Source: Candidatus Saccharimonadota bacterium (lineage in GTDB: Bacteria; Patescibacteriota; Saccharimonadia; Saccharimonadales; Saccharimonadaceae). From it: a stretch of DNA of 64,000 nt. The translations under genes and the position numbers were made by a program. The notes under the pieces are model-generated. The model was given only the letters and a program-made list of their open reading frames with translations, was not told the origin of the DNA and made no database searches. The DNA is taken from assembly GCA_030528355.1 (NCBI GenBank), contig JAUMZA010000001.1:71177-135176 (forward strand). Reading direction: 5' to 3'. Below are positions 5,893 through 61,797 of this stretch, one piece after another (positions within the stretch are counted from its first letter, which is position 1; each line of letters starts with the position of its first letter).

Positions 5893-6345
5893 TTATGACT
5901 GACGCAGGTACGTCATCAACTCTGCAAGCCGCTCCGAAGAGACCGAAGCGGCCGCATATCGCCGCTCAAGTTCATCTACCAGTGCAGCCCGCATACCAGC
6001 TAGCGACCGATCCGAAAAGCCGGTCGCTTTTGCTTTATCTGCCATGACATCATCATAATTGAGCGATACACACTCGCCGTCAATCACCGCCCCTGCATAA
6101 GCCGTACGACGCAACAGCTTTTCTAGCTCCTTGCTGTGACGCAAAGCGGCGTATAATTCCTGCGGGGTAGTATCATCAACTGCCAAAGACAACGCACGCA
6201 ACACAGCATGTGATTTACGCCAAATATCAGATAGCAGGGCAATATCAACGCTTTCCGTGCCAGTGGTTGATTCAAATACCTCAAGCTGATGTAGCAATAG
6301 CCTATCGTGCGGCCGCCCTAGCAACACAGCAAGCTGCCTGGCCAT
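5893..6345 (-). CDS. Hypothetical protein
   Basis: 150 aa ORF with compact spacing, directly downstream of the pfkB-like gene in the same orientation. No recognisable motif. Confidence 0.45.
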   Translation of the reverse strand: MARQLAVLLGRPHDRLLLHQLEVFESTTGTESVDIALLSDIWRKSHAVLRALSLAVDDTTPQELYAALRHSKELEKLLRRTAYAGAVIDGECVSLNYDDVMADKAKATGFSDRSLAGMRAALVDELERRYAAASVSSERLAELMTYLRQS

Positions 6346-8224: not shown

Positions 8225-8282
8225 ACTCCCCCTTAAAGTTATTATGCTTACTGTGCTTTATTATACAGAGATTTGCGTATTT

Positions 8283-10132: not shown

Positions 10133-10134
10133 GG

Positions 10135-10779
10135 TTATAAAATCCCGTGACGGTTAATTTCTGTAACAAGATTTTTGTACATCATTTCAGCATCATCTGC
10201 AAACTGAATCGCTCCGCCTACATTCAAAATATCAACCCCACCCTGCACGAGCGAATAGGCATTATCCAGGCTAACACCGCCATCCCAGCCAATCTCAACC
10301 ATTGGGTTAATTTTTTTGATAAGACGAACCTTCTCTAGTTGCATCATATGCGCCTTACCGCCATAGCTACCAAGTTCGCCCGCAAAAATCATCACATGAT
10401 CAACTAGCGAAATTAAATTAGCTACATTGGCCGGCACTGTTTTTCGCAGCAAGACCAAGCCAGCCTTAATACCATACTGCTGCAGAGTCACAAATACAGC
10501 TGGCAAATCACCTTCGGCTTCAGCATGAAATAACACCATACGAGGTTTCGCATGTACCAATACAGATAGCACATCCTCTGGGCGACGCACCATTGCATGC
10601 ACGTCCGCTTCACACCCATCCGGCCACCAAATCTCGGACGGCTTAATGGTTGCATGCGGTGCAAACTCACCATCGGTGAAATCGATATGCAATCTTGTTG
10701 CAAACGGCTTCACCTTTTCGATCTGAGCCTGGTACTGCTCTGGCGTTTCTGCGAGTATTGCAGGAATAATTTCGCTCAT
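10135..10779 (-). CDS. rpe: Ribulose-phosphate 3-epimerase family protein
   Basis: 214 aa TIM-barrel protein. Motif LHIDFTDGEFAPH corresponds to the HxDxMDG motif of Rpe. Confidence 0.75.
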   Translation of the reverse strand: MSEIIPAILAETPEQYQAQIEKVKPFATRLHIDFTDGEFAPHATIKPSEIWWPDGCEADVHAMVRRPEDVLSVLVHAKPRMVLFHAEAEGDLPAVFVTLQQYGIKAGLVLLRKTVPANVANLISLVDHVMIFAGELGSYGGKAHMMQLEKVRLIKKINPMVEIGWDGGVSLDNAYSLVQGGVDILNVGGAIQFADDAEMMYKNLVTEINRHGIL

Positions 10780-11283
10780 CTATACCTCATCTATCTGCAT
10801 ATTACGTCGCCTAAAGCGTGGAGCGTTTGCGAACGGCGTCTCTAGCCACGCATCAATAATCTTTTGCCACTCCGTAGGGTTGTCTTCTAAAATACGAGCT
10901 GGCAAGCATAGTACGTTACTATCATTGTCATTACGGGTCATTTTAGCCTCATATTCATCCCAAATAACACTCGCACGAATCCCCCTAAAGCGATTTGCCG
11001 CCATACACATACCCTGTCCGCCGCCGCATAATAGAATTGCCCGAGCATCAGAAGCTTGCGGCTCACCCAGCACCTTTACGGCTGCCGCCTGAGCAAATTG
11101 TGGAAAATCATCATCTGGGTGCGGCTCAGTATCGCCCACATCGTATACGTCATAGCCACGCTTTTTTAGATATGTGTGAACTTCCTCCTTCAGTCGAAAG
11201 CCATTATGGTCAGAACCTAGAAAAATCTTCATACTTATAAGTATAAGCGTATTACCGCCCGATTGCAAGCTAGCCATCTTCAT
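10780..11283 (-). CDS. rpiB: Ribose-5-phosphate isomerase B (RpiB/LacAB family)
   Basis: N-terminus KIFLGSDHNGFRLKEEVHTYLKKRGYDVYDVG is typical of RpiB. The ORF-track start at 11283 probably over-extends; the likely start is the internal Met at MKIFLG. Confidence 0.85.
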   Translation of the reverse strand: MKMASLQSGGNTLILISMKIFLGSDHNGFRLKEEVHTYLKKRGYDVYDVGDTEPHPDDDFPQFAQAAAVKVLGEPQASDARAILLCGGGQGMCMAANRFRGIRASVIWDEYEAKMTRNDNDSNVLCLPARILEDNPTEWQKIIDAWLETPFANAPRFRRRNMQIDEV

Positions 11284-11333
11284 CTATACGCCATGAAATC
11301 AATTGCAAAATCCACCTCCCTACAGTCTAATTA

Positions 11334-11361
11334 TTGATTTTTTATAAAAATATGCTATACT
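11334..11361 (+). promoter_or_regulatory. Sigma70-like promoter (TTGATT -16 nt- TATACT) for the 11466 operon
   Basis: -35 TTGATT at 11334..11339, a 16-nt spacer, and -10 TATACT at 11356..11361. Confidence 0.55.
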
Positions 11362-11368
11362 AATTATT

Positions 11369-11437
11369 AGGCTTATTTAAGCCTGTTTGGCAATCGTGCC
11401 ATGTTCATTTACATCTGATATGCTTAAAAAGCATATC
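11369..11437 (+). promoter_or_regulatory. Structured 5' leader with two perfect hairpins upstream of the 11466 ORF
   Basis: First hairpin: AGGCTTA-TT-TAAGCCT at 11369..11384. Second hairpin: GATATGCTT-AAA-AAGCATATC at 11417..11437. Both lie between the predicted transcription start and the start codon. Confidence 0.45.
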
Positions 11438-11465
11438 ACCCTACCCTATAGAATAGGAGACAGCG

Positions 11466-11984
11466 ATGAATGGGTATGTAATACCTACTTCTCAAATCAA
11501 GACTAATGCAACTTACCATGATGTGCAGTTTGCCACCAGTGGACTGGTTGGTGCTACAAACCGCCCTATACCGTTGGCATTTTCGGCAGATTTCTTATGG
11601 GAGAAGCTCCATCAGGAGATTTTTACATTTATCGATACGCACTTCGATGACATTGCGATATACTACAAGAAAATCTGTTCGCACAGCATGGTTCTCAGTA
11701 ATCGTAGACTTAAGGTTCGAGTAGCTGTAGGTGACATCCAGCTTCAGTTTGATTTTTGGCTACAAAATCCCAATGAGGATGTAATAGAGGAGAGTTTGCA
11801 CAGCGAACTAATTGATGCTGATGCGAAGGTGGCAAGAGAAGCTCTTTTCAAGCTTATCAAATCACTGGAGCAGCATCTTGCATTCTATGCCGCTAGCCTT
11901 CTACAAAAAGCAGTGAAAGACGGCGTAACAAGCATACAAACGCCACACCCGGTATCCACCAAGCAATCCACTACCACACCCTAG
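11466..11984 (+). CDS. Hypothetical protein (first of a tandem pair)
   Basis: 172 aa with no signal peptide or TM helix. Weak collinear similarity to the next ORF. Confidence 0.6.
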   Translation: MNGYVIPTSQIKTNATYHDVQFATSGLVGATNRPIPLAFSADFLWEKLHQEIFTFIDTHFDDIAIYYKKICSHSMVLSNRRLKVRVAVGDIQLQFDFWLQNPNEDVIEESLHSELIDADAKVAREALFKLIKSLEQHLAFYAASLLQKAVKDGVTSIQTPHPVSTKQSTTTP

Positions 11985-11994
11985 GAGGACTATC

Positions 11995-12456
11995 ATGTCG
12001 ACGACAACATCACACTCCAAGATAGAGCTTTGCGTCAATAACGGGAAGCTGTTCGCAACTGCTATGGCTATAATTACCACCGAGACCCCGCGCTTCTTAT
12101 TGTGCGAGAGTAATCTTGTGCGTAAACTACTGTACCAGGAAGCAGAAAGCCTTGCAAGTAATGAGGTCATTCTCAAAAACCTTATCACAGAGCAAAGTCA
12201 TCGCTGTGTAGAAGGTCGACCTGGAGTTCATGCAGAAATGCATAGGTCTTTGACTGTGGATGATATGAAGATAGAAATCTACTTCTTTATTCACCCGGCT
12301 TTCATACCCTGGCGCATAAAATGCATGTTCTTAGATAGTGCTGGGCCTAGCCTAGATGAACTCAACAGGCAAGAACTCGCCCTGCACGCAGACTCCCTTA
12401 CGCAAAAGCTACAAGATACCCTTGGTGCATCAACCAGGGAACCTGTCGGGCCGTAA
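11995..12456 (+). CDS. Hypothetical protein (second of the tandem pair)
   Basis: 153 aa, 10 nt after the previous ORF, preceded by AGGAGGAC. Confidence 0.6.
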   Translation: MSTTTSHSKIELCVNNGKLFATAMAIITTETPRFLLCESNLVRKLLYQEAESLASNEVILKNLITEQSHRCVEGRPGVHAEMHRSLTVDDMKIEIYFFIHPAFIPWRIKCMFLDSAGPSLDELNRQELALHADSLTQKLQDTLGASTREPVGP

Positions 12457-12537
12457 GGAAACCATTCAATCCACTACCTATAGGAGCAGCATGTAACTGA
12501 CCTGTCATATCCAAACTGGCGTAGTTACTACGCAATA

Positions 12538-12571
12538 CCCCCTCTTACAGAAGAGGGGGCTTTCTTTGTTT
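12538..12571 (+). terminator. Intrinsic terminator (8-bp GC stem plus T-tract), usable from both strands
   Basis: CCCCTCTT-ACAG-AAGAGGGG followed by GCTTTCTTTGTTT. It sits between the end of the 11995 ORF and the convergent gap gene. Confidence 0.7.
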
Positions 12572-13580
12572 AGATAGTCCTGCCGATATCGGCCACTAGT
12601 TCGACCAAGCGGTTGCTATAGCCCCATTCGTTGTCATACCATACACAAATTTTTACTAGGTCACCATCAACCACCCGAGTAAGCGGCAAGTCTACAATAC
12701 CAGAATGACTATTGCCAATGTAATCACGGCTTACCAGCGGTTCGTTACTCACTGCTAGCACGCCTTGATAAAACGGCTCGGCCGCCGCCTTAGTAAAGAC
12801 TGCGTTAATCTCCTCTACAGTAGTAGGACGCTTTAGTAATGCAGTCACATCACTAATCGACACTACAGGAGTTGGCACACGCATGCTAATGCCATCAAAC
12901 TTACCCTTTAGGCCTGGCAATGCCTTGGTAACTGCGATAGCCGCCCCAGTGCTGGTTGGTACGATATTTTCCGCTGCATTACGACCCTCGCGCAAATCCT
13001 TGGCAGGTGCATCTTGGATTCGCTGGCTAGCGGTATAGCTATGCACGGTAGTCAGCATTGATTTCTGCACGCCAAATTCTGCATCCAAAATCGCCATCAC
13101 GGCACCAAGACTATTAGTAGTACAACTCGCATTGCTTACTACTGGCGTTGCTGTGCGGATTTTCTCATCATTTGCCCCTAGCACAATTGTATCGGCATCA
13201 TCTGATTTAGTCGGACCACTAATCACCACCCGACGAGCACCCGCTTGAATATGCTTGGCGGCGTCTTCTGACTTGGTGAAGAAGCCAGTTGATTCAATCA
13301 CTACATCAATATCCATACCTCGCCACGGTAGTGATGCTGGGTCACGCTCGCTCAGCACCGCAATATGTTTACCGTTCACTTTTATGCCTGTGTCGGTAGC
13401 TTCTACCTCATGGTGATACGTGCCATAGTTGCTATCATGCTTTAGCAGATAGGCTAGTGTTTTTGTATCGGTTAAATCATTAATTGCCACGATTTCGATA
13501 TCGTTACGTTCAAAGGCAATCTTAAAAGCACTGCGGCCAATTCGCCCAAAGCCATTAATGGCGATTTTTGTTACACTCAT
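12570..13580 (-). CDS. gap: Glyceraldehyde-3-phosphate dehydrogenase
   Basis: INGFGRIGR NAD-binding motif and the ASCTTN active-site cysteine motif. Confidence 0.95.
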   Translation of the reverse strand: MSVTKIAINGFGRIGRSAFKIAFERNDIEIVAINDLTDTKTLAYLLKHDSNYGTYHHEVEATDTGIKVNGKHIAVLSERDPASLPWRGMDIDVVIESTGFFTKSEDAAKHIQAGARRVVISGPTKSDDADTIVLGANDEKIRTATPVVSNASCTTNSLGAVMAILDAEFGVQKSMLTTVHSYTASQRIQDAPAKDLREGRNAAENIVPTSTGAAIAVTKALPGLKGKFDGISMRVPTPVVSISDVTALLKRPTTVEEINAVFTKAAAEPFYQGVLAVSNEPLVSRDYIGNSHSGIVDLPLTRVVDGDLVKICVWYDNEWGYSNRLVELVADIGRTI

Positions 13581-13705: not shown

Positions 13706-15244
13706 ATGAAACGGCGTGAATTACTCGATTTAGCAACCCAGCTCTACACAGAGGATGAAATTTTTGAACTTGAGCTTGCAATCGATTTTGCCACGCATGC
13801 CCATCACGGGCAAACTCGCAAAAGTGGCGAACCCTATATCACCCATCCGCTAGCTGTTGCAGCTATTTTGATAGACTGGGCGATGGATATCGATACGGTA
13901 CTTGCTGGCGTACTACACGACACAGTGGAGGATACCGACGCTACGCTTGATGAAATTGAATCATTGTTTGGACGTGATGTAGCCTTTTTAGTAGATGGCG
14001 TCACAAAAGTTGGACAAGCCCGAGCTGGCATGAAACATCTTAAGCACTATTTGCCACAAACTACCGACAACCTTTCAAAACTCCTGATTGCCATTAGCCA
14101 AGATGTGCGAGTGATTATTATTAAGCTGGCAGATAGGCTCCACAACCTACGCACTCTGCAGCATATGAAGCCAGAAAAGCAGCAGAAAATCGCCAAAGAA
14201 AGCCTTGAGGTATTTGCCACCATGGCAGACAGACTGGGTATGGGGCAAGTGCGTATGCAAATTGAAGAATTAGCGTTTAGCTATCTTGACCCGCACGAAT
14301 TTAATCGCCTTAAAAACATCATGAAAAAGCGGCTCGGTAAAAGCACTCGCAAGCTAGGTGCAGTGCGACTAGAGGTAGAGCAGCGATTGCAAGAAGAAAA
14401 CATTGATTTTGAAATTAACGGTCGTGTCAAAAGTATTTACAGTCTGTTCAAAAAGCTAAAAAAGGTTGATGGCAATATTGATGATATTTACGATTTAATG
14501 GCATTGCGAATTATTGTCCATACTAAAGAAGAATGTTACCGTGTGTTGGGGATTTTACATAGCATGTATCAGCCGATGATTGCCCGCATTAAAGATTACA
14601 TCTCGGTACCAAAACCAAACGGTTATCAAAGCTTGCACACCACGGTGATTACCCCAAACAAGCAAATTGTTGAGTTTCAGATTCGCACGCACGAGATGCA
14701 CGAATATGCCGAACGTGGATTGGCGGCCAGCTTCCACTATCATGAGCAAAAATCACGCAAGCAATATGCCCGCAAGGGTGGCTCAACTAGCCTACCGCCG
14801 CAACTGCAGTGGATTTCTCGCTTGCAAGAGATTGCCCAACAACTCACTAACAATGAAGAGATTAGTCGAGATCAGCTTAATGTGGATCTATTTGGCGACC
14901 GTATTTTCGTATATTCGCCCAAAGGTGATATTTATAATTTACCCGAAGGTGCCTTGCCGCTTGATTTTGCCTACCTAGTGCACACCGATGTTGGCAAGCA
15001 CGCTTACGCCTTTAAGGTAAACGGTTCAATTCAGGCGTTTGATAAGCCGCTCATAAATGGCGACATGGTTGAAGTAATTACTCGCAAAACTACCAGCCCT
15101 AAAAAAGAATGGCTCGATATGGTAAAAACCAGCCATGCTCGCACCAAAATCCGCACCCAACTTAAGCAACTTGGTGTAATCGACTCCATCACCCAGGCAG
15201 CAGCTATTATTCGGGATAAGGCACTGCGTAAAAATAACAGCTAA
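13706..15244 (+). CDS. rel: Bifunctional (p)ppGpp synthetase/hydrolase (RelA/SpoT family), short form lacking the ACT region
   Basis: 512 aa with an HD hydrolase motif (HHGQTRKSGEPYITHPLAVA), a RelA_SpoT synthetase domain and a TGS domain. Confidence 0.9.
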   Translation: MKRRELLDLATQLYTEDEIFELELAIDFATHAHHGQTRKSGEPYITHPLAVAAILIDWAMDIDTVLAGVLHDTVEDTDATLDEIESLFGRDVAFLVDGVTKVGQARAGMKHLKHYLPQTTDNLSKLLIAISQDVRVIIIKLADRLHNLRTLQHMKPEKQQKIAKESLEVFATMADRLGMGQVRMQIEELAFSYLDPHEFNRLKNIMKKRLGKSTRKLGAVRLEVEQRLQEENIDFEINGRVKSIYSLFKKLKKVDGNIDDIYDLMALRIIVHTKEECYRVLGILHSMYQPMIARIKDYISVPKPNGYQSLHTTVITPNKQIVEFQIRTHEMHEYAERGLAASFHYHEQKSRKQYARKGGSTSLPPQLQWISRLQEIAQQLTNNEEISRDQLNVDLFGDRIFVYSPKGDIYNLPEGALPLDFAYLVHTDVGKHAYAFKVNGSIQAFDKPLINGDMVEVITRKTTSPKKEWLDMVKTSHARTKIRTQLKQLGVIDSITQAAAIIRDKALRKNNS

Positions 15245-15325: not shown

Positions 15326-15871
15326 CTATGACGCTGCGTAGTCGCTTGCGTTCCAGCGTTTGATAGATTCATGGATGACGGCTTTTGCTTCTTCTACATC
15401 ACCCCATGACTCAACCTTGGTGGTGCCAGGTTTTTTCAAATCTTTGTAGTGATTAAAGTGGAATTCAATCTGCTTAATAAGCTGGGCCGGCACATCTGCA
15501 AGCGATTGAATCGCATTGCCGGTATGGCGATCATCGGCCGGTACAGCCACAATTTTATCATCAACTTCGCCATCATCAACAAACTTCATCACGCCAATCA
15601 CACGAGCTTCAAGATATACGCCAGTAGCGAGCGGCTCTTCGGTGAGCAGTAATACATCCAGCTCATCGCCATCTTCATCAAGCGTTTGTGGAATAAAGCC
15701 GTAGTTAGTTGGCTTGGCAAACACCATTGGCTCATCACGGTCCAGCTTAAATAGCTTTTTGTTACGATCCCACTCAATTTTATGATTCGAGCCACGAGGA
15801 ATCTCATTAACTACGGTAATTAGCCCGGCATCAATATCGCCTGGCGTAAGCACTGCATTATAGTCGCCCAT
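15326..15871 (-). CDS. ppa: Inorganic pyrophosphatase
   Basis: 181 aa with the DGDELDVLL motif. Confidence 0.9.
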   Translation of the reverse strand: MGDYNAVLTPGDIDAGLITVVNEIPRGSNHKIEWDRNKKLFKLDRDEPMVFAKPTNYGFIPQTLDEDGDELDVLLLTEEPLATGVYLEARVIGVMKFVDDGEVDDKIVAVPADDRHTGNAIQSLADVPAQLIKQIEFHFNHYKDLKKPGTTKVESWGDVEEAKAVIHESIKRWNASDYAAS

Positions 15872-16670: not shown

Positions 16671-17609
16671 TTACGCAGATTGGCGATGTTTTTCTTCAAG
16701 ATATTCACGGATTGATAGTGCCGCAATTGCACCCTCACCAACCGCACTGGCAATTTGCATAGTTGCTCCGCTGCGAACATCACCGCAGGCAAACACACCT
16801 GGTATGTTAGTAGCCAGCTTATCGTTAGTTTTTACCAAGCCTTGTGCATCAAGTTCAACACCACTCCCCGCCAAAAAGCCAGTATTTGGGTTCAGCCCAA
16901 TAAAGACGAATACGCCATCAGCTGCCACATGGCGAGACTCACCCGCCCGCTCAACCTGCACACCAGTCACAACTCCATCTCGACTGGTAATCTCTTGCGG
17001 CACAGCACCAAGATGCACCGTAATAGCACCTGCATCAATATGCTTTTGCAATTCTTTTTGTAGCACCTCGCTTGCTTTAACAGTGCTGCGCACCAAGAGC
17101 TCAACATGTGAAGCAAATCGTGTTAAGAAAATAGCTTCTTGTACAGCTGAATTACCGCCACCAATCACCGCAAGGCGTTTTTCGCGATAAAATGCTCCGT
17201 CGCAAGTGGCACAATAATGCACACCTCGGCCATAGAACTCATCTTCACCCGGTACACCAGTTTTTTTATGACTACTGCCGGTAGCAATAAGCACCGACTC
17301 CGCTGTCACCGGCTTGCCATCAATTTGCAATTCGATGTAATCCTCCACCCGACGCAGGGCAGTCACTTCGCCAAATTCAATTTCAGCACCAAATCGCTCC
17401 GCTTGCGATTGCAATTGCATCGCCAGCTTCATACCTTCTACACCGTCTGGAAAGCCTGGGTAATTATCGATTTTATCAGTGATAGCCGCCATACCGCCAA
17501 CTACACCCTTTTCGTATAGCACCGTGGGAATATCTTCACGGGTGGTGTAAATTGCTGCCGTGAGGGCACTAGGGCCAGCTCCAATTACTACTACTGGTTT
17601 ATGTGTCAT
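16671..17609 (-). CDS. trxB: Thioredoxin-disulfide reductase
   Basis: 312 aa with GAGPSALTAA (FAD-binding), the redox CATCDG motif and GGGNSA (NADPH-binding). Confidence 0.9.
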   Translation of the reverse strand: MTHKPVVVIGAGPSALTAAIYTTREDIPTVLYEKGVVGGMAAITDKIDNYPGFPDGVEGMKLAMQLQSQAERFGAEIEFGEVTALRRVEDYIELQIDGKPVTAESVLIATGSSHKKTGVPGEDEFYGRGVHYCATCDGAFYREKRLAVIGGGNSAVQEAIFLTRFASHVELLVRSTVKASEVLQKELQKHIDAGAITVHLGAVPQEITSRDGVVTGVQVERAGESRHVAADGVFVFIGLNPNTGFLAGSGVELDAQGLVKTNDKLATNIPGVFACGDVRSGATMQIASAVGEGAIAALSIREYLEEKHRQSA

Positions 17610-20130: not shown

Positions 20131-20159
20131 GCCTCTATTATACCACCGCTTTTTTTGCT

Positions 20160-21458
20160 ATGATAAGATATATGAAAAGCATAAGTATTTCTAAAATTGT
20201 TGGGCGTCAGATTTTAGATTCTCGTGGCAATCCAACTGTCGAAGCAGATGTTATCCTTAGCAACGGAGCCAAAGGTCGTGCGGCCGTACCTTCTGGTGCA
20301 AGCACCGGTAGCCACGAAGCGGTTGAGTTGCGTGATGGCGGTGATAGTTACGGCGGCAAGGCTGTCTTACAGGCGGTTCGCAATATTAATGAAGTCATTG
20401 CCCCCAAACTTATTGGCATGAACGTATATAATCAACGCCAGTTAGACGCTGCAATGCAGCAGCTTGATGGCACACCAAACAAGGCTAATCTTGGTGCGAA
20501 CGCCATTCTAGCCGTGAGCTTGGCCAGTGCCAAAGCAGCCGCTGAAAGCTTATTCTTACCGCTACACGATTACATTGCCCGCCTAGCTGGCACCACCAAG
20601 CAACAATCAATTCCACTGCCAATGATGAACGTCATGAACGGCGGCCAGCACGCTGCAGGCAGCACTGATATTCAAGAGTTTATGATTATCCCGCACGGAG
20701 CAGATACGATCCAGCAGGCTATCGAAATGGGAGCAAATGTCTTTCACAGACTCGCAAGCGTCTTAAAAGATGCTGGCTACATGACAACAGTTGGCGATGA
20801 AGGCGGCTATGCACCACGAGTCAGCCATGGTAATAGCGAACCGCTGCAACATATTATGCAGGCTATCGCCCAGGCTGGCTATATTGCAGGAACCGATATG
20901 TCGCTCGGGCTTGATGTGGCTGCAACCGAATTTTTTAATGACGGTGCATACCATTTATCTACCGAACATAAAACACTCAGCTCACAGGAAATGATCACCT
21001 GGCTTGAACAACTTGCCAACTCATACCCGCTAATCTCGATTGAAGACGGCCTTGCCGAAGACGATTGGCAGGCCTGGGCAACACAAACCACTCAACTTGG
21101 CGATAGATTGCAAATTGTAGGCGATGACCTATTAGTAACCAATACCACCTTGCTACGTCGTGCTATTAACGAGCACGCCGGTAACGCCATCTTAATTAAA
21201 CCAAATCAAATTGGCTCACTATCCGAAACTATCGATGCCGTGCTGATGGCCAAGCAAGCTAATTGGAACACAGTTATTTCACATCGCTCCGGCGAAACGG
21301 AAGATACCACTATTGCACATATTGCCGTTGGGTTGGGTGCCGGGCAAATCAAAACCGGCTCGCTTTCTCGCACCGATCGTGTCGCAAAATATAACGAACT
21401 ACTCCGCATTGCAGAGGCCGCCCCACACTTGCAACTTGCACGGCCATTCGAAAGGTAA
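20160..21458 (+). CDS. eno: Enolase
   Basis: Enolase motifs KIVGRQILDSRGNPTVEADV and SHRSGETEDT. The true start may be the second ATG at 20172. Confidence 0.95.
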   Translation: MIRYMKSISISKIVGRQILDSRGNPTVEADVILSNGAKGRAAVPSGASTGSHEAVELRDGGDSYGGKAVLQAVRNINEVIAPKLIGMNVYNQRQLDAAMQQLDGTPNKANLGANAILAVSLASAKAAAESLFLPLHDYIARLAGTTKQQSIPLPMMNVMNGGQHAAGSTDIQEFMIIPHGADTIQQAIEMGANVFHRLASVLKDAGYMTTVGDEGGYAPRVSHGNSEPLQHIMQAIAQAGYIAGTDMSLGLDVAATEFFNDGAYHLSTEHKTLSSQEMITWLEQLANSYPLISIEDGLAEDDWQAWATQTTQLGDRLQIVGDDLLVTNTTLLRRAINEHAGNAILIKPNQIGSLSETIDAVLMAKQANWNTVISHRSGETEDTTIAHIAVGLGAGQIKTGSLSRTDRVAKYNELLRIAEAAPHLQLARPFER

Positions 21459-21461
21459 CCC

Positions 21462-23117
21462 ATGGCAGTTATTGTATTCTACGAAGCAACGCCAATTGAT
21501 ACCAGCCAGCTTACTGACGGCCTACGAGAAACCGATCACTACTGGGAATATGTCTCGGGCACAATTAACGACCAAAACATCAACCCAGAAGCAGAGGTTG
21601 TTTCTGTGTTTGTTGATAGTATCGTTACTCGTGATCTTATGGATCGTATGCCAAAATTACGACTCATCGCCACCCGCTCAAGCGGCTATGATCATATTGA
21701 TCTTGACTACGCAAAGCAACGCAATATTACCGTGGTAAACGTGCCAAGCTTTGGTGAGAATACAGTGGCAGAGCACGCTTTTGCACTACTACTTATGCTG
21801 CTACGCAAACTACCGCACACCATCGAAACCACCAAAGACGGCTCATACGACCCCGCCGATCATGTTGGTACCGATCTTATCAACCTCACACTGGGGATTA
21901 TTGGGCTTGGTAGAATTGGTAGTTTTATGGCAAAGATTGCTGCTGGCTTTGGTATGAAGGTAGTAGCGTATGATATCAAGCAAGATGCTGCCCTTGCGGC
22001 GGAGCTTGGCGTTACTTATGTTGGGCTGGATGAACTGCTCACAACGAGCGATATCGTATCACTCCATGTGCCACTCACACCAGACACCTACCACCTGATT
22101 AACCGCTGCACCATCCATAAGCTTAAAAAGGGTGCGATCCTCCTCAATACGGCCCGGGGTGAATTGGTAGAAAACCGTGCCTTGGTGCGTGGGCTTGCGA
22201 GCGGACACCTGGCCGGAGCAGGTCTAGACACCCTTGAAGGTGAACGCTTTTTACGCACAGAATCGATTATTGGTAACTTGGTAGAAAAGGCCGCTTCACC
22301 CGAAAGCTACCTACACACCGCCGAAACCATGGCACTGCTACGTATGCCCAATGTTGTTATCACTCCGCACAGTGCCTACAATACAACCCATGCCATCCAA
22401 CGCATTAATACCTGCACGGTTAAAAATATTATTGATTTTTGGTATGGCAACACGCCAAATCGTGTTAGTGTTCCGCGCAGCTCTGGTAAGCTGGTAGTGG
22501 TGCGACACGGACAGAGCGAATGGAACGCACTTGGTAAATGGACCGGCACCACCGACGTACACATTACCGAGCTTGGCGTAAAAGAATCAGTTACTATTGG
22601 CAAGCAGCTGCGAACTATCCCGTTTGATTTTGCCTTTATTTCACAACAAGTCCGCACCAAAGAAACGATTGAAGCCATTAAAACTGGGGCAAAACAACCC
22701 GGCCTTACCTACGAAGAAACCGGTGCGCTAAACGAGCGTGATTACGGCATCTACACTGGCATGCGAAAAAATGATATTAAAAAAATTATTGGCAGTGCCG
22801 AATATGACCAATTACGACGCAGCTGGGACGGCCCAGTAGAAGGTGGCGAATCACTCAAAGATGTCTATGAGCGTACGATTCCGTTCTACTTGCGCATTAT
22901 CCTACCTCGATTGCGTCATGGACAAAACATTTTAGTAGTAGCTCACGGCAATTCTATTCGATCATTAATTAAGTATGTTGAAAATATCTCTGATAGCAAA
23001 ATCGGCGAACTAGAGATGATCCAAGGCTGTGCCTTAAGCTATGAAGTAGATGCAGAAGGTCGTGCAAAAACAAAAGAAACTATTCTGCTTGATACGTCAG
23101 AAGATATCGAACCGTAA
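21462..23117 (+). CDS. Fusion protein: N-terminal D-lactate dehydrogenase-like (D-isomer 2-hydroxyacid dehydrogenase) joined to C-terminal 2,3-BPG-dependent phosphoglycerate mutase
   Basis: 551 aa. Residues 1-335 carry GIIGLGRIGS (NAD-binding), NTARGELV, GLDTLEGERF and ITPHSAYNT, collinear with fermentative D-LDH. Residues 336-551 start with LVVVRHGQSEWN (the dPGM RHGESxWN motif). The ATG lies 3 nt after the eno stop. Confidence 0.85.
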   Translation: MAVIVFYEATPIDTSQLTDGLRETDHYWEYVSGTINDQNINPEAEVVSVFVDSIVTRDLMDRMPKLRLIATRSSGYDHIDLDYAKQRNITVVNVPSFGENTVAEHAFALLLMLLRKLPHTIETTKDGSYDPADHVGTDLINLTLGIIGLGRIGSFMAKIAAGFGMKVVAYDIKQDAALAAELGVTYVGLDELLTTSDIVSLHVPLTPDTYHLINRCTIHKLKKGAILLNTARGELVENRALVRGLASGHLAGAGLDTLEGERFLRTESIIGNLVEKAASPESYLHTAETMALLRMPNVVITPHSAYNTTHAIQRINTCTVKNIIDFWYGNTPNRVSVPRSSGKLVVVRHGQSEWNALGKWTGTTDVHITELGVKESVTIGKQLRTIPFDFAFISQQVRTKETIEAIKTGAKQPGLTYEETGALNERDYGIYTGMRKNDIKKIIGSAEYDQLRRSWDGPVEGGESLKDVYERTIPFYLRIILPRLRHGQNILVVAHGNSIRSLIKYVENISDSKIGELEMIQGCALSYEVDAEGRAKTKETILLDTSEDIEP

Positions 23118-23136: not shown

Positions 23137-23169
23137 AAAATACCCCTCGTAGGACTGAGGGGTATTTTT
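23137..23169. terminator. Bidirectional intrinsic terminator
   Basis: AAAATACCCCTC-GTAGGACT-GAGGGGTATTTTT, lying between the convergent ldhA::gpmA fusion and pheT. Confidence 0.75.
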
Positions 23170-23194: not shown

Positions 23195-25687
23195 CTATAC
23201 AATCTCAGCAGCAACCCTGTTACAAATCACACTGGCAACAGCAGCAATTACGGTATTAATTTCGTCAGACGACAATGTCTTTTCGTACGAAGTTAGCGAT
23301 AATCGCAGTGTGATGGTTTTATGTGCTGACTTTTCATCCGGTTGATATATTGCCACCGGCTGGAGCGACACACGCAGCCCATCAATAGCCATAATCCCCT
23401 CCTCTGCCGCTTCTCGCACCTCTGCGTACGACACGCTATTTGCGACCTTTACAGAAATATCTCGGGTGGTTGAGGGAAATCGGCTCAGTGGCACATAGTT
23501 ACTGCAGCGAGCCATCCACGCCGCTTCAAGCCCGGCAGTGTGCAAACTTGCAGCGGCAGTGTATTCAGGTAATTTAAACTGCGTACGCACCGTTGCTTTC
23601 AGCTCACCAACAATCCCCATCAATTCACCGGTCGCAGTTTTTACTAACGCACTGCGAGCAATGTCAAACGGAGCAGTTACTGGAAGCTTAGCGAATTCTT
23701 CGACAACTGGCGTAAACGTAAACTCAATTCCTAAATCAGCCCCAAGTTGCTCTACCATGCGTCGCACCACATAAAACGGTGCACCTTTATCTGGTTTTTT
23801 TGCTGCATACACCATATCGGTAAACTCAGCTTCGCTCGGCAAACCATCATCCGCAGTCGCATAGGCCTTGCAATGACCTTTACCCATTTCAAATAACATA
23901 AAGCGTTCGTGCCCAGCTTTAATGTTTGCATGCACCTTATCCAGCAAGCTTGGCAGTACCGTTAGGCGATAGTATTGCAAATCCGGACTCAATGCGTTAG
24001 ATAACTTAAATGCATCAGTCGGCTGTTGCTGTGCTTTTGTCAGTACTTGCTCATGCACGAAGCTATATGTGAGCACCTCGTTAGCACCAGCCCGAACAAG
24101 ACTTTCACGAATGTGCTGCTTTACCTGCCGACGGGTATTTTTTGCGACTGGCTTAGTGCGACGCTGCGGCAACTCACGAGGCAAGCGGTCAAATCCATAC
24201 AAGCGGCCAACTTCTTCAACGATATCTTCGGCAATAGTAAGGTCGGTACGCCAAAATGGCACGGTCAGGCGAATAGAGCCACGTGCCTCTTCGAGGCTAT
24301 GATTGTCGATTTCAACTTGTGTAAGCAGCTGGCAAATTTCATCGGTCGAGAGCTCGCCGCCTAGACGCTCGCAAATAAACTGGCTGCTAATATCGATATT
24401 TGCCGGCACGTGACGGCCGTTAAAGTACTCATCACACACCGCACTCGCCTGCTGGCCATCAATCATCGTCAGTAGCTGCTGCAGCACGGGTGCGGTCTGT
24501 AGTGGCGATTGCCCTTTATTAAACCGCGCCAATGCATCCGTAAAAATACCATGCCGCATAGCTGTTTTACGTACTGCATACATATCAAAATTTGCACATT
24601 CTATAATAATACGTGTGGTGCTCGCAGACACTTCTGTATCACTCCCACCCATAATACCAGCCAGGCCAATCGCCCGATTGCTATCTGCAATCACAATATC
24701 ATCTTCTGTGAGTGTAATCGTTTTACCATTTAATAGGGTGAGTGTTTCGCCTTTGCGTGCCATGCGTGCTACTAGCGTTGCATCGTTCACTGTATCGTAA
24801 TCGTAGGCATGGGTTGGCTGGGCGGTTATAAGCATGCTGTAATTAGTTATATCAACAATAGTATTAATTGGCTTGCCACCCATCGCAACAAGTTCGCACT
24901 GCAGCCACAACGGGCTCGGTTTGACTGATACGCCATCGATCGCTACTGCCATTATGCGAGGCACTTTATCTGTGGCTTCATTGATAACCGATAGCTCCAG
25001 CCCACTACCTGCCGCAAATTCCTGCGCTGCAGTGTACCATGCAGGGCTTGTAAATTGCTGCCCATAAATACCGGCAATCTCACGAGCCACACCCAACTGC
25101 CCAAAACAATCTGGCCGGTGCGTAAACATTTTATTTTCAATCTCTAGCACATATCCATCAAGCCCAAATACATCCGCAAAACGTGCTCCGGCTACAAGCT
25201 CAACGCCCGCTGGCATATCGTATGGTGTAATTGCAATAATACCATCGTGGTCATCATTAATACCCAGCTCGTCACCAGCAGCCAGCATACCCTGGCTCAT
25301 CACCCCACGCAATTGACGTGCCGATAATACAAAAGGTTCTGCATCATCATAGGTAACCGGCACCGTTGCACCTGGCGGCAACCACACTGCCCACATATCA
25401 GCCTGCACATTTGGTGCACCACACACCACCTGCACCAATCCATCATCGTTACGTGGCACATCGGCCACTACACCGCCATCATCAACCAAGCATACCGTTA
25501 GCCGATCAGCGTCGGGGTGCGGGCTACACGACACCACTTGCACAATTCGTGCAGCCCGATATTTTTCACCCAAGTTAATGACCTCTTCAACGCCACCAAG
25601 CCGAGCATTGATTCGCTCAACCAACTCATCAACTGGCGGCAACTCAAACGCCAGCAGCTTTTTAATACTATTAAGATTTACTTTCAT
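23195..25687 (-). CDS. pheT: Phenylalanine--tRNA ligase beta subunit
   Basis: 830 aa with the PheT domain order (tRNA-binding, B3/B4, B5, core, FDX-ACB). Confidence 0.95.
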   Translation of the reverse strand: MKVNLNSIKKLLAFELPPVDELVERINARLGGVEEVINLGEKYRAARIVQVVSCSPHPDADRLTVCLVDDGGVVADVPRNDDGLVQVVCGAPNVQADMWAVWLPPGATVPVTYDDAEPFVLSARQLRGVMSQGMLAAGDELGINDDHDGIIAITPYDMPAGVELVAGARFADVFGLDGYVLEIENKMFTHRPDCFGQLGVAREIAGIYGQQFTSPAWYTAAQEFAAGSGLELSVINEATDKVPRIMAVAIDGVSVKPSPLWLQCELVAMGGKPINTIVDITNYSMLITAQPTHAYDYDTVNDATLVARMARKGETLTLLNGKTITLTEDDIVIADSNRAIGLAGIMGGSDTEVSASTTRIIIECANFDMYAVRKTAMRHGIFTDALARFNKGQSPLQTAPVLQQLLTMIDGQQASAVCDEYFNGRHVPANIDISSQFICERLGGELSTDEICQLLTQVEIDNHSLEEARGSIRLTVPFWRTDLTIAEDIVEEVGRLYGFDRLPRELPQRRTKPVAKNTRRQVKQHIRESLVRAGANEVLTYSFVHEQVLTKAQQQPTDAFKLSNALSPDLQYYRLTVLPSLLDKVHANIKAGHERFMLFEMGKGHCKAYATADDGLPSEAEFTDMVYAAKKPDKGAPFYVVRRMVEQLGADLGIEFTFTPVVEEFAKLPVTAPFDIARSALVKTATGELMGIVGELKATVRTQFKLPEYTAAASLHTAGLEAAWMARCSNYVPLSRFPSTTRDISVKVANSVSYAEVREAAEEGIMAIDGLRVSLQPVAIYQPDEKSAHKTITLRLSLTSYEKTLSSDEINTVIAAVASVICNRVAAEIV

Positions 25688-30100: not shown

Positions 30101-31423
30101 TTACGCAAATAAATCATTCAATGCTTCACTCACTGTTGGGTGGGTAAAAATTTGGTCACGCAGCACAGTGTACGGCAAGTCGTTATCCATCACGGTTTTG
30201 ATGATATTAATGACTTCTGGCGAGTTGCGACACAGCAGGCTAGCACCCAAAATTCGCTCGGTGTTCGCATCAATCACCGCACGTAGCAAGCCTGTGGTGG
30301 CATTATCAACATGTAGGCGCGGAATCGCCATAGCTGGCAGCTCTTTCACGATAATATCACGCCCCGCTACCCTAGCCTCGGCTTCCGTCATACCCACCCG
30401 AGCCAGTGGCGTTTGCATAAAGACGGCGTACGGCAAGGTTTTTTGCTTGGCGCGAGTGTACGAACCATCGCCCAATAACTGGCTTTTCACAATCCGAAAA
30501 TCATCCAGCGATGCATAGGTAAATTGCGGCCCGCCGGTCACGTCGCCCATCGCCCAAATGTGCGGCTGGCTGGTGCGGAGTGTTTCATCAACCACGACCG
30601 CCCCGCGCTCATCCGTTGCCACGCCAGCAGCCGGCAAATTCAAGCTCGCCGTTGCCGGGCGGCGGCCAGTGGCCAGCAGTACCGCATCGTAGTCGGCATA
30701 GTCGCCATGGTTCACTGTGCAAATTGTTGCAGTTGCCCCACCTTCAATTGCCGCCACATCTACACCAAACACCACTTCAATACCCTGTGCCTGCAGTGCT
30801 TCGGTGGCCGCTTTGGCAATTGCTGGATCTTCACGGGTCAGCAACACATCACCCTTCTCAAATACCGTCACCTTTGTGCCAAGCTTGGCGTAGGTCGAGG
30901 CAAATTCCAGTCCAATGTAGCCACCACCAATAATCGCCAGGTGTTTTGGCTGCATGGTTGCATCGAGCAAATCGGTGCTGGTGTAAACAAACGGCTTATC
31001 CACGCCCGGAATATCCGGAATAATCGATTCCGCCCCGGTATTAATAAATAGCTGCGGTGCAGTAAGCAGCAGTTCATCATCGCCCGCCGCAACCTTCACG
31101 GTATGCGCATCCACAAACGACGCCTCACCTTCGATCACACTAACCGTTTCACGATCCGCCAGCATGTGATAATTCTTGTCATTCAGCCGCGTTACCACCG
31201 CCGTCTTATGTGTCATCGCTTCATCAAAACTTTGGTGATGTTCGGCCGCATGTACCAGCACCTTGGTGGGGATGCACGCAATATTGATGCAGGTGCCGCC
31301 ATACATTTTTGGCGACCGCTCTACCAGCGCCACCTTTTTACCCGCATTCGCCAGTGCCACCGCCAGCGTCTTACCCGCCTTACCAAAGCCGATGATGAGT
31401 GCGTCGAATTGTTGTGCGTTCAT
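30101..31423 (-). CDS. Class I pyridine nucleotide-disulfide oxidoreductase (dihydrolipoyl dehydrogenase / glutathione reductase-like)
   Basis: FAD motif IIGFGKAGKT, redox-active GGTCINIACIPTK (CxxxxC) and C-terminal HPTVSEAL. The ATG at 31423 is preceded by GGAGG; the ORF-track start at 31480 is an upstream over-extension. Confidence 0.85.
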   Translation of the reverse strand: MNAQQFDALIIGFGKAGKTLAVALANAGKKVALVERSPKMYGGTCINIACIPTKVLVHAAEHHQSFDEAMTHKTAVVTRLNDKNYHMLADRETVSVIEGEASFVDAHTVKVAAGDDELLLTAPQLFINTGAESIIPDIPGVDKPFVYTSTDLLDATMQPKHLAIIGGGYIGLEFASTYAKLGTKVTVFEKGDVLLTREDPAIAKAATEALQAQGIEVVFGVDVAAIEGGATATICTVNHGDYADYDAVLLATGRRPATASLNLPAAGVATDERGAVVVDETLRTSQPHIWAMGDVTGGPQFTYASLDDFRIVKSQLLGDGSYTRAKQKTLPYAVFMQTPLARVGMTEAEARVAGRDIIVKELPAMAIPRLHVDNATTGLLRAVIDANTERILGASLLCRNSPEVINIIKTVMDNDLPYTVLRDQIFTHPTVSEALNDLFA

Positions 31424-31881
31424 GTATCCCTCCTCTCTACGGACCGCTTCTCTTTCTGAACAGCGATATAAAGAGTACACCTCGCCACGCCATCGGCCGT
31501 ATATTCCGCCGGCGTACTCACTTCAAAATCTTGCGTATACGCCCGCTGCAATATGCCAGCTTTTTCATCGCGCCAGACATGCTGCCACGCCTCGGCTACA
31601 CAAGTCGCCACATTCCTACCGCTAGCCTCATATCGCCGAAATATTCCTCGAACCGCCTCATCTTCAAGTTGCTTAATACGCACCACACTGGCAAGCAAAA
31701 TAGTCAAATCATACGCACCGTCCATACCATTTTCATAGCGAGAATACCGTGCTATTGGAAACTCGCCAGCTGCCGCCTGAGTAAGTAGCGGGATCTGACC
31801 CGACATCACCGCGTTCCACAACTCCTCAATCCGAGCAATCCCTGCGGGCGAATTATCGGTGCGAATAGTGATATGATTCAT
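31420..31881 (-). CDS. Hypothetical small protein, possibly a GyrI-like effector-binding fold
   Basis: The ATG at 31881 is preceded by AAGGAGAT; the ORF-track extension to 31965 overlaps pheS. Fold assignment is by weak resemblance only. Confidence 0.45.
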   Translation of the reverse strand: MNHITIRTDNSPAGIARIEELWNAVMSGQIPLLTQAAAGEFPIARYSRYENGMDGAYDLTILLASVVRIKQLEDEAVRGIFRRYEASGRNVATCVAEAWQHVWRDEKAGILQRAYTQDFEVSTPAEYTADGVARCTLYIAVQKEKRSVERRDT

Positions 31882-47141: not shown

Positions 47142-47165
47142 CTTTTCACCATCTGGTGCAATATT

Positions 47166-57954: not shown

Positions 57955-58109
57955 ATATCCTCCTTGATTTTGGGTTGGTGTTATGATTTTAGTATAGCAT
58001 CTTCATCATATCATTTGCATCAGGAAGTCTTGCTTTTACTGCCGCACAAAGTATACTATTAATAGCTATGAGGCAACGATTTAGACGAAACTAATCCTTT
58101 CTCCTTTAC

Positions 58110-61794: not shown

Positions 61795-61797
61795 AAC

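Follow-up and report, generated by a model that had tools for sequence, protein, structure and literature searches.

A natural fusion of a D-2-hydroxyacid dehydrogenase to phosphoglycerate mutase, encoded next to enolase in Saccharibacteria

An open reading frame that appears to encode both a dehydrogenase and a phosphoglycerate mutase (dPGM) raises the questions of whether the two halves truly form one protein, which reaction each would catalyse, and what the cell would gain from joining them. Such a frame is present directly downstream of eno in the 64-kb stretch of DNA from a Saccharimonadota bacterium that was analysed here, referred to as the window (Table 1). As the preliminary description proposed, it is a single frame from ATG to stop in the window sequence, with neither a stop nor a change of frame at the junction near position 22465, and the motifs quoted in that description lie at residues 256-263 (DTLEGERF), 302-308 (PHSAYNT) and 348-355 (RHGQSEWN). 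The polypeptide comprises a dehydrogenase, a linker and a short dPGM, in that order, and carries three Pfam domains: 2-Hacid_dh (E 3e-26), 2-Hacid_dh_C (E 4e-53) and His_Phos_1 (E 2e-35). The AlphaFold2 model of the protein has a mean pLDDT of 87.6 and a pTM of 0.76. The linker is not predicted to be disordered, the block of residues 331-340 has a pLDDT of approximately 77, and both G342 of the linker and nearby N333 are invariant columns in a family alignment of 29 sequences (A1).

Table 1. Positions, within the window, of the fusion gene, its parts and its neighbours
Feature	Position	Strand	Details
eno (enolase)	20160..21458	+	First of two-gene unit; Pfam Enolase_N 6.6e-56, Enolase_C 6.7e-112
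SD-like AAAGG	21451..21455	+	In last two eno sense codons, 6 nt before fusion ATG
Fusion ORF (D-2-hydroxyacid dehydrogenase + dPGM)	21462..23117	+	551 aa, ATG start
NAD-dependent D-2-hydroxyacid dehydrogenase domain, LDHD/X9 type	21462..22466	+	Residues 1-335
Predicted catalytic residues	22155-22157; 22242-22244; 22368-22370	+	R232; E261; H303
Linker SVPRSSG	22467..22487	+	Residues 336-342 (7 residues)
dPGM domain	22488..23114	+	Residues 343-551; H349 at 22506-22508
GC-rich hairpin	23137..23168	.	13 bp, between A-run and U-run; RNA fold
pheT	23195-25687	-	Convergent with fusion gene

Homologues of the fusion were drawn from NCBI, JGI, ENA and Logan assemblies. The window protein itself returned no record by exact look-up, and a protein 76% identical to it (P0005) was used for the comparison of gene context. 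The full-length architecture is present in at least 120 protein clusters (clustered at 90% identity) at 49-99% identity, and all source names shown for these clusters are Saccharibacteria or other Patescibacteria labels. Two-gene states are known elsewhere, either overlapping at ATGA (L073) or separated by gaps of 3 nt and longer (L021-L025), and an assembly or sequencing artefact that merged two adjacent genes was considered. However, the same unbroken junction, with its conserved linker, recurs in at least 120 clusters from independent assemblies, so that a local frameshift or misassembly is excluded; the artefact, whose probability is negligible, was rejected, and the fusion is natural, as had been claimed. 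The same distribution corrects the earlier view of the arrangement as unusual, since Saccharibacteria as a lineage normally carry the fusion.

Sequence comparison supports the assignment of the C-terminal half as a genuine dPGM, in agreement with the preliminary description. The TIGR01258 (pgm_1) model is matched at 147.4 bits by the whole protein and at 152.3 bits by the domain alone against a cutoff of 81.7, and His_Phos_1 at 122.5 bits against a cutoff of 21.7, while the equivalog models are not reached by the domain (PRK01295, 168-171 bits against a cutoff of 316). The RHG phospho-histidine motif, the second His, the Arg, the Glu and the phosphate-binding residues of dPGM are all present, as R348-H349-G350, N355, R398, E425, K436, R452-R453 and H495-G496-N497; the phosphate-binding residues are those numbered Asn17, Lys100, Arg116-Arg117 and Asn186 in the E. 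coli enzyme. R348, H349, N355, R398, E425, K436, R453, H495 and N497 are invariant in A1, and every residue of the full set is at least 90% conserved, if not invariant, both in A1 and in the 120 homologues; the catalytic residues vary in neither set. The best PDB match is S. pombe PGM (1fzt, 137 bits, full length), which, like the short dPGM model PRK01295, aligns end-to-end with the domain, shares its catalytic and phosphate-binding residues and lacks a loop of ~25 residues that the E. coli and yeast enzymes have, but which is a free-standing protein of 211 aa.

The N-terminal half belongs to the D-2-hydroxyacid dehydrogenase superfamily according to Pfam, with 2-Hacid_dh_C matched at 180 bits (cutoff 25.1) over residues 107-305 and 2-Hacid_dh at 92 bits (cutoff 24.6) over a span of residues 35-334 that is split around the NAD-binding domain. 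The Arg-Glu-His triad and the GxGxxG motif (residues 148-153; G148, G150 and G153) are both present in the window protein, and among the 120 homologues R232 is conserved in 106, E261 in 117, H303 in 117, and GxGxxG in all. The determinants listed for LDHD enzymes are a Phe at beta3-alpha3 (Phe51), a Tyr at beta5-alphaA, a Phe or Tyr at betaG-alpha5, and an NADH aspartate (PMC6303947), and these positions are occupied in the window protein by F50, F97, Y306 and D171. The aspartate is present in 120/120 homologues and the Phe51 equivalent in 107/120. Position 97, where the window protein has F, is Tyr in 101 of the 120, and F97 is accompanied by Y306 in 15 of the 16 sequences that possess it, as if one pocket hydroxyl were retained. 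The domain also has the long loop of LDH type, which lies between D256 and H303.

In a PDB sequence search, the N-terminal domain matched 3kb6 at 219 bits, LDHD chains at 175-185, PGDH chains at 162-168 and GyaR at 158 bits. Each of the top 24 Foldseek matches is a D-LDH or a pyruvate reductase, with the D-LDHs 5z20 and 3kb6 the best (TMt 0.84-0.88). The closest match, 3kb6, is the 'D-lactate dehydrogenase' aq_727 of Aquifex aeolicus, which was crystallised with NAD and lactate, is 43% identical to the domain and shares with it the RSxG[FY]DHIDL motif, NTARG, a Tyr at H+3 and the long loop that precedes the catalytic His; it differs in being a stand-alone protein of 334 aa with no mutase and in having YSPE where the fusion family has YGEN. 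The LDHD D-LDHs (E. coli LdhA, 3wx0/5z1z; P. aeruginosa, 5z20) are collinear with the domain over ~290 residues (TMt up to 0.88) and share the catalytic triad, the NADH aspartate, the Phe51-type gate and the aromatic pocket residues, but are only ~42% identical to it and have no reported fusion to a mutase. The collinearity with LdhA noted previously was reproduced, with residues 44-333 aligned to residues 45-326 of chain 5z1z. The original D-LDH assignment must be softened: the best matches of the domain are D-LDHs, but the NCBIfam scores are nearly tied (VanH 212, PGDH 212 and glyoxylate reductase, GyaR, 206 bits), and subfamily X9, in which the nearest structure, 3kb6, is placed, is described as biochemically uncharacterised (PMC6303947). 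No NCBIfam model claims the domain; these three stay below their cutoffs, and the curated D-LDH models fall well below theirs (PRK08605, 167 against 356; PRK12480, 154 against 579; vanH_gen, 212 against 540). Pairwise identities are similarly close (X9 43%, LDHD 42%, GyaR 40%). A neighbour-joining tree was computed for 111 N-domain sequences, the references being 3kb6, 5z20 and 5aov. Its basal branches are very short and it does not resolve the clade; the fused sequences form two groups, 5z20 is nested among stand-alone proteins, and the tree was given no weight in judging monophyly or in choosing between X9 and LDHD. The sequence and fold comparisons favour an N-terminal half closer to D-lactate dehydrogenases than to SerA, and we infer the D-LDH label from them.

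A SerA-like 3-phosphoglycerate dehydrogenase would share its substrate with the fused mutase, an intuitive reason for fusion, and the PGDH model TIGR01327 scores level with VanH. Its 212 bits are, however, far below the cutoff of 454, and the PGDH chains align only as far as residues 262-288, without the long LDH-type loop, and score well below 3kb6. The window protein has the LDH-type insertion and a hydrophobic pocket, Pfam detects no ACT or ASB regulatory domain, neither serC nor serB was found in the 64-kb window, and Saccharibacteria have been described as lacking amino-acid biosynthesis (PMC8386444; PMC12592800). A SerA identity, which the preliminary description had named as an outcome that would overturn its assignment, is thus very improbable and was rejected on model cutoff, alignment extent, ACT domain and pathway context alike.

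The fusion gene is closely tied to eno. As previously described, its ATG lies 3 nt (ccc) after the eno stop codon (TAA, 21456-21458), with the SD-like motif inside the 3' end of eno. SD-like 4-mers lie upstream of 29 of the 61 predicted genes in the window, compared with 9% of random positions, and SD sites are therefore in use in this genome. In L001 and L004 the eno/fusion boundary reads AGAGG-TGA-ttt-ATG, with the motif in the same place as in the window, and in the window a consensus terminator scan found no terminator-like site between the two genes. The layout is that of a coupled operon (same strand, gap of a few nucleotides, SD in the upstream gene, no terminator), and translation of the fusion gene would be coupled to that of eno. 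The true start of eno may be the ATG at 20172 (MKSISISKI...), 8 nt past a TATGAT box. Downstream of the fusion gene, the hairpin of Table 1 (dG -21.7 kcal/mol, z = -4.2, none of 200 shuffles as stable) was found by folding, not by the consensus terminator scanner, and probably acts as an intrinsic terminator in both directions, separating the fusion gene from convergent pheT.

These features are best accommodated by a bifunctional enzyme, encoded in a two-gene unit with eno, that combines dPGM with the reduction of pyruvate to D-lactate and fixes the co-expression of the two, a reading to which we assign a probability of roughly 0.6. The C domain would interconvert 3-phosphoglycerate and 2-phosphoglycerate via phospho-histidine H349, and enolase, translated just upstream from the same message, would yield PEP. 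The NADH-dependent N domain, of the LDHD/X9 clade, would most likely reduce pyruvate to D-lactate using R232, E261 and H303, thereby regenerating NAD+ for GAPDH, whose gene lies 8 kb upstream. Fusion would then provide fixed 1:1 co-expression of lower-glycolytic and redox-balancing steps in a very small genome; we infer both activities, the pyruvate substrate and the co-expression rationale. Gene context supports pyruvate reduction: in related CPR genomes, unfused homologues lie beside eno along with a gene for pyruvate kinase or one resembling PEP synthase. GAPDH, aldolase, transketolase, RPE and RpiB are encoded upstream in the window, although neither pyruvate kinase nor PPDK was found within its 64 kb, and Saccharibacteria reconstructions, which lack pyruvate dehydrogenase, PFOR and the TCA cycle, invoke D-LDH as the NAD+-regenerating step (PMC6031116; PMC12592800). 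The channelling between the fused domains suggested earlier is implausible, because enolase and the pyruvate kinase or PPDK step separate PGM from LDH; the two steps are not consecutive, and direct channelling is unlikely.

Among the points against the pyruvate substrate are the F in the window protein at the otherwise conserved Tyr97 position and a predicted GyaR-type enzyme at the same position in other CPR genomes. The dehydrogenase that adjoins dPGM in L021-L025 or is fused to it in P0134 is of the GyaR/GHRB type (5aov, 241 bits; NCBIfam glyoxylate reductase, 292 bits), and enzymes of the glyoxylate/hydroxypyruvate-reductase type usually do not accept pyruvate (PMC6303947). The N domain of the window protein might thus reduce hydroxypyruvate or glyoxylate, as a D-glycerate/glycolate dehydrogenase, a reading that would also accommodate its near-top GyaR score and the lack of biochemistry for X9. 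Phosphorylation of D-glycerate would in that case feed PGM and enolase, and the fusion would tie an entry step to lower glycolysis. We consider this unlikely: the long LDHD-type loop and the pocket formed by F50, Y/F97 and F/Y306 would restrict substrates to the size of pyruvate, the loci examined showed no glycerate kinase in their vicinity, and pyruvate reduction is a necessity for a fermenter that has no other sinks. The recurrent neighbours are, moreover, pyruvate-forming enzymes (PK, PPS-like). The gene order in L021-L023 is 2HADH, dPGM, a short pyruvate kinase and eno, and the first three of these genes, the third unscanned, recur in L024 on a contig too short to show eno. In two Saccharibacteria an unfused homologue comes immediately after a PEP synthase/PPDK-like gene; eno is the next gene in L076, and one unrelated gene intervenes before it in L031.

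The order in L076 can also be read as a route from lactate to 2-phosphoglycerate, as can the same genes in L031 despite the intervening gene, and lactate is abundant in oral habitats. The pathway might accordingly run in reverse, with D-lactate from the host oxidised to pyruvate and passed through PEP synthase, enolase and PGM into gluconeogenesis. There is only a slim chance of this, given that lactate oxidation is usually performed by flavoenzymes and that pyruvate kinase, an irreversible glycolytic enzyme, is part of the L021-L023 cluster. NAD-linked LDHD enzymes, furthermore, act as pyruvate reductases (PMC6303947).

Conservation of the dehydrogenase active site bears on whether the N domain is catalytic throughout the family. 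The full triad and pocket residues are present in 100 of the 120 clusters, the window protein having them as well, whereas one triad residue is lost in the other 20 (~17%), in three patterns: R232N/H (for example NTANG in P0035), E261G (P0012) and H303R (P0018). The clusters with R232N/H mostly also have G75 replaced by E/D/S/N and S at residue 306. Catalysis by the dehydrogenase is therefore not universally required, and all triad-loss clusters keep GxGxxG and D171 while their dPGM catalytic residues are invariant. Mean identity is 59% for the N domain and 66% for the C domain, which is the more conserved in 110 of 119 comparisons. A mainly non-catalytic dehydrogenase module, which would serve as a scaffold for NAD(H) sensing or dimerisation and let redox state control lower glycolysis, would fit these losses and the faster evolution of the N domain, as well as the short, conserved linker and a pTM that suggests a fixed domain arrangement; dPGM of the S. 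pombe type is monomeric, and a dimeric partner could matter to it. Looser constraints on an ordinary enzyme would, however, also predict a faster N domain, most sequences retain the complete active site, and we know of no allosteric link between dehydrogenase and dPGM folds. That the dehydrogenase half is a redox-sensing or oligomerising controller of the fused mutase, and a pseudo-dehydrogenase in the triad-loss sub-clades that keep NAD binding, is thus rather improbable; if true, it would represent a new direct coupling of the NADH/NAD+ balance to lower-glycolytic flux in minimal cells.

For the bifunctional enzyme, the neighbourhoods in relatives suggest an origin. Eno is the immediate neighbour of the fusion gene or its homologue in the window, in the one species of L001-L004 and in 15 further genomes (L006-L014, L016-L020 and L073), the 3-nt spacing is confined to the closest relatives of the window (L001-L004), and eno is divergently transcribed in 12 more distant genomes. 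The fusion may have arisen from a cluster widespread in CPR bacteria, where a gene for a 2-hydroxyacid dehydrogenase is found beside gpmA, eno and pyk or pps, when a short intergenic gap was read through to give a single dehydrogenase-dPGM polypeptide. A glyoxylate-reductase-type dehydrogenase has been fused to dPGM separately, by independent fusion or domain replacement, in P0134 (531 aa), which is present in two independent assemblies (L085 and L086). It has the same domain order and kind of dPGM as the window protein, with eno immediately downstream, but differs in its dehydrogenase, a short-loop member of the glyoxylate/hydroxypyruvate reductase group. Other glycolytic enzymes are also fused in pairs, as in PGK-TPI of Thermotoga. 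TPI-GAPDH of stramenopiles, which likewise joins two central-carbon enzymes, has been read in terms of co-expression or co-localisation (PMC3527533). Those pairs catalyse consecutive or near-consecutive steps, whereas enolase and pyruvate kinase lie between the steps of the window fusion, making it a natural test case for non-consecutive enzyme fusions that includes variants without dehydrogenase catalytic residues.

No description of a dehydrogenase-dPGM fusion was found in the limited library of literature searched, and the protein is named dPGM by NCBI and D-lactate dehydrogenase by JGI. Because annotation pipelines give the fusion a single name, one of its functions vanishes from KEGG-style maps. 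Metabolism is very sparse in Saccharibacteria and other CPR, so that each central-carbon gene counts in reconstructions. Within the 64-kb window, no phosphoglycerate mutase other than that of the fusion gene is recognisable, and the same gene supplies the candidate dehydrogenase for NAD+ regeneration. In a genome of TM7 oral taxon 348 (L004), a taxon that we take to belong to G1, the fusion is present and its dehydrogenase active site is intact. Oral G1 Saccharibacteria have been described as lacking D-LDH and G6 as possessing it (PMC8386444), a contrast that may partly be an artefact of single-name annotation. The fusion also provides a clean lineage marker. Elsewhere in the window, the LeuRS gene contains an in-frame stop at 47166-47168, for which a protein search returned mostly truncated or frameshifted assemblies (L084).

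The fusion gene is a single open reading frame (ORF), as the preliminary description had held, and a base-level reading of the window passes through the domain junction at about 22465 without a stop or a frame change. All three motifs quoted in that description were found: DTLEGERF at residues 256-263 and PHSAYNT at 302-308 in the dehydrogenase half, and RHGQSEWN at 348-355 in the mutase half. The TAA stop codon of the enolase gene eno (21456-21458) is followed by three bases, ccc, and then by the fusion ATG, and an AAAGG at 21451-21455 lies within the last two sense codons of eno, 6 nt 5' of that ATG, which bears out the spacing described earlier and the presence of a Shine-Dalgarno (SD)-like site. 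Reading AAAGG as an SD is reasonable, given that SD-like 4-mers occur upstream of 29 of the 61 predicted genes of the window versus 9% at random positions. A hairpin separates the fusion gene from the convergent pheT, and the unit therefore consists of eno and the fusion gene. The eno ORF has a second in-frame ATG at 20172, and a TATGAT stands 8 nt ahead of it (20158-20171).

Features of the window, in window coordinates
Feature	Position	Strand	Remarks
Central-carbon cluster	6345-13580	-	PfkB-family kinase, class II fructose-bisphosphate aldolase, transketolase, ribulose-phosphate 3-epimerase, RpiB, GAPDH
Transketolase, split into N and C ORFs	8283-9278 and 9275-10132	-	4-nt overlap
GAPDH	12570-13580	-	
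RelA/SpoT-type (p)ppGpp enzyme	13706-15244	+	
Inorganic pyrophosphatase	15326-15871	-	
Thioredoxin-reductase-like flavoprotein	16671-17609	-	
Enolase (eno)	20160-21458	+	Pfam Enolase_N 6.6e-56, Enolase_C 6.7e-112
Fusion ORF	21462-23117	+	551 aa, ATG start
Hairpin	23137-23168		13 bp, A-run and U-run on flanks; folding dG -21.7, z -4.2
Dihydrolipoamide-dehydrogenase-like flavoprotein	30101-31480	-	
Leucyl-tRNA synthetase (LeuRS)	46428-48935	-	In-frame TAA at 47166-47168
92-aa ORF	58059-58337	-	
tRNA-Arg(tct)	58110-58182	+	ARAGORN call
DpnII-type restriction-modification cassette	60182-62769	-	D12-class N6-adenine methyltransferase, DpnII endonuclease, second N6/N4 methyltransferase
tRNA-Gly	63074-63149		Adjoins the DpnII-type cassette

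Homologues were sought among 5.8 billion proteins clustered at 90% identity. At least 120 clusters, drawn from NCBI, JGI, ENA and Logan, span the whole 551 amino acids with 49-99% identity to the window protein; the organism labels shown are mostly Saccharibacteria or Saccharimonadales, and one reads Candidatus Nomurabacteria. On GTDB contigs, with one genome per species, TM7 oral taxon 348 comes closest (76% identity), and about 20 more species-level genomes labelled Saccharibacteria or Patescibacteria have the same domain pair; on a 7-kb contig with a Proteobacteria label (L035) the pair is broken across frames. Clustering at 50% reduces the family to only three full-length representatives, indicating that it is compact and lineage-restricted. 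In and around the linker, an alignment of 29 sequences shows W327, G329 and P332 conserved at 90% or more and N333 and G342 invariant, which argues for one origin of this LDHD/X9-type dehydrogenase-dPGM fusion, LDHD and X9 being subfamilies of the 2-hydroxyacid dehydrogenases (2HADH). Judged from these sequences, the fusion is genuine and normal for its lineage, and the arrangement, previously presented as unusual, is not peculiar to the window.

The C-terminal half scores 122 bits with the Pfam model His_Phos_1 and passes the dPGM subfamily model TIGR01258 (147-152 bits, cutoff 81.7), and its best equivalog-type model is PRK01295 for the short 206-aa dPGM, at 168-171 bits and under the cutoff of 316. 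Its closest solved relative, the S. pombe mutase 1fzt (211 aa), aligns end to end, whereas the alignment to E. coli GpmA is broken in two by a loop that the C-terminal half lacks. The residues that we take to set dPGM apart from a generic histidine phosphatase, namely RHG, N355, R398, E425, K436, R452-R453 and HGN at 495-497, are all present and invariant or nearly so across the family. The assignment of this half as a predicted phosphoglycerate mutase is firm.

Both Pfam 2HADH domains were found in the N-terminal half, and the NCBIfam models for VanH (212 bits), PGDH (SerA-type; 212) and glyoxylate reductase (206) are each far under cutoff and do not discriminate. In a sequence search of solved structures, the best match is 3kb6, the Aquifex 'D-lactate dehydrogenase' (219 bits), with LDHD enzymes of Pseudomonas, E. 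coli, Fusobacterium and Salmonella at 165-185 bits, PGDH at 162-168 bits in alignments reaching only about residue 262-288, and the glyoxylate reductase GyaR at 154-158 bits. When an AlphaFold2 model of the fusion protein (pLDDT 87.6, pTM 0.76) was used as a Foldseek query, the top 24 hits were D-lactate dehydrogenase (D-LDH) or pyruvate reductase entries (TMt 0.78-0.88), and no PDB chain spanning both halves was found. The entry 3kb6 has been assigned to subfamily X9, and the published LDHD determinants are a Phe at beta3-alpha3 that keeps out substrates bigger than pyruvate, a Tyr at beta5-alphaA, a Phe or Tyr at betaG-alpha5 and, for the choice of NADH, an Asp (PMC6303947). The fusion family has F50 in 107 of 120 sequences, Y97 in 101, F or Y at 306, D171 in all 120, and R232/E261/H303. 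The window protein combines F97 with Y306; of the 16 sequences that carry F97, 15 show this swap, as if the pocket keeps one hydroxyl. Pairwise identities of the N domain are about equal (X9 43%, LDHD 42%, GyaR 40%) and a neighbour-joining tree of the domain gave no resolved placement, and it is therefore filed as LDHD/X9-type, a probable pyruvate reductase, rather than as a proven D-LDH. The N-terminal half is a predicted D-2-hydroxyacid dehydrogenase, probably of the D-lactate dehydrogenase type, a putative D-LDH.

One residue of the dehydrogenase triad is replaced in 20 of 120 unambiguously aligned sequences (the window protein and 119 homologues), P0035, P0049, P0072, P0012 and P0018 among them: R232 by N or H in 14 (NTANG or NAAHG for NTARG), most of which also have G75 changed to E, D, S or N and a Ser at 306; E261 by G in three; and H303 by R in three. 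The variants keep D171, the NAD motif and all of the mutase residues. In 110 of 119 comparisons, conservation is lower in the N domain than in the C domain. Retention of a domain with a replaced triad suggests that dehydrogenase catalysis is dispensable or altered in some lineages, and the variants may be pseudo-dehydrogenases or have altered specificity. It also leaves room for a structural or regulatory role, and the dehydrogenase half could act as a redox sensor or scaffold, which we consider improbable; the window protein has the canonical triad residues.

Enolase is the immediate neighbour at nearly all loci compared. It lies upstream and co-directional in the window, in L001-L004 (one species) and in L006, L007 and L008, and upstream and divergent in 12 genomes (L009-L014, L016-L020 and L073); the layout of stop codon, 3 nt and ATG is found only in the window and L001-L004. 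Most of the 12 divergent genomes have a TATAAT-like box 5-12 nt before the fusion ATG, and boxes so close to start codons suggest possible leaderless mRNAs in Saccharibacteria. L073 encodes the same dehydrogenase type and dPGM in two genes with an ATGA overlap (L073 6990-7010), which may be either a natural split or the product of a later fission of the fusion gene. Loci L021-L025, from other CPR genomes, encode a different, glyoxylate-reductase-type dehydrogenase and then a separate dPGM; the gap between the two measures 3-10 nt in L021-L023 and is longer in L024 and L025. In L021-L023 the dPGM is followed by an ORF of 264-270 aa, in L021 a pyruvate kinase barrel, and then by enolase; L024 has a 267-aa ORF at the matching position on a contig that shows no eno. 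A glyoxylate-reductase-type dehydrogenase is itself fused to dPGM in P0134, with eno downstream in two independent assemblies (L085 and L086). In the Saccharibacteria loci L076 and L031, an unfused LDH-like homologue is directly preceded by a PEP-synthase/PPDK-like gene of about 805 aa and followed by eno, directly in L076 and one gene further in L031, and in L047 and L049 the dehydrogenase gene likewise directly precedes eno. These gene orders suggest that lower-glycolysis genes and a 2-keto-acid reductase gene cluster together across the CPR, and that reading through a very short gap between genes could have produced a fusion at least twice. The enolase in L085 and L086 is called as two ORFs in both assemblies. 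A marine protist protein, P0132 (929 aa; MMETSP eukaryotic transcripts), has a dPGM-like domain with RHG degenerated to CSG and then two tandem D-LDH-type domains; here the two folds were combined independently and in reverse order.

The window protein retains intact catalytic residues in both domains, and its gene is tied to eno. The mutase would convert 3-PG to 2-PG via phospho-H349, enolase would form PEP, and pyruvate would be supplied by a pyruvate kinase or dikinase with its gene beyond the window, neither having been found within the 64 kb. The N domain would then reduce pyruvate to D-lactate with NADH, recycling NAD+ for GAPDH. According to published work, PDH, PFOR and the TCA cycle are absent from Saccharibacteria (PMC6031116; PMC12592800). 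Because two other steps part the two fused reactions, the metabolic channelling proposed earlier is unlikely, and fixed 1:1 co-expression with genome economy is the simplest rationale. The fusion itself thus stands and its interpretation does so in part: the mutase is firm, the D-LDH probable and direct channelling between domains not plausible. The gene is predicted to be bifunctional lineage-wide.

Both enzyme families are well known, as are fused glycolytic enzymes such as TPI-GAPDH (PMC3527533). The dehydrogenase-dPGM architecture is already in public databases, and a full-text search found no description of it in the literature covered. Annotation of the fusion under a single name conceals one activity. 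The genome of TM7 oral taxon 348, which we take to be a G1 member, encodes a fusion protein whose dehydrogenase site is intact (L004/P0005). On KEGG/KOfam evidence, oral Saccharibacteria of G6 have been reported to possess D-LDH and those of G1 to lack it (PMC8386444). This contrast may in part reflect the hidden activity of the fusion.

Elsewhere in the window, the LeuRS gene is interrupted by one stop codon 11 codons before KMSKS, giving a 589-aa ORF with the catalytic and editing domains and a 237-aa ORF with KMSKS and the anticodon-binding domain. The same break occurs in P0277, a 244-aa protein of an NCBI Saccharibacteria MAG that is 100% identical, and its position recalls the two-subunit LeuRS of Aquifex; a two-subunit enzyme, a sequencing error and a nonsense mutation are equally possible. 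The PfkB-family kinase adjoining the aldolase could substitute for the phosphofructokinase reported missing in Saccharibacteria. The tRNA-Arg(tct) overlaps the 92-aa ORF and is not reported by the Rfam tRNA model at its gathering score. The RelA/SpoT, pyrophosphatase and both flavoprotein genes flank the glycolytic genes in the same order as in the 76%-identical relative L001.
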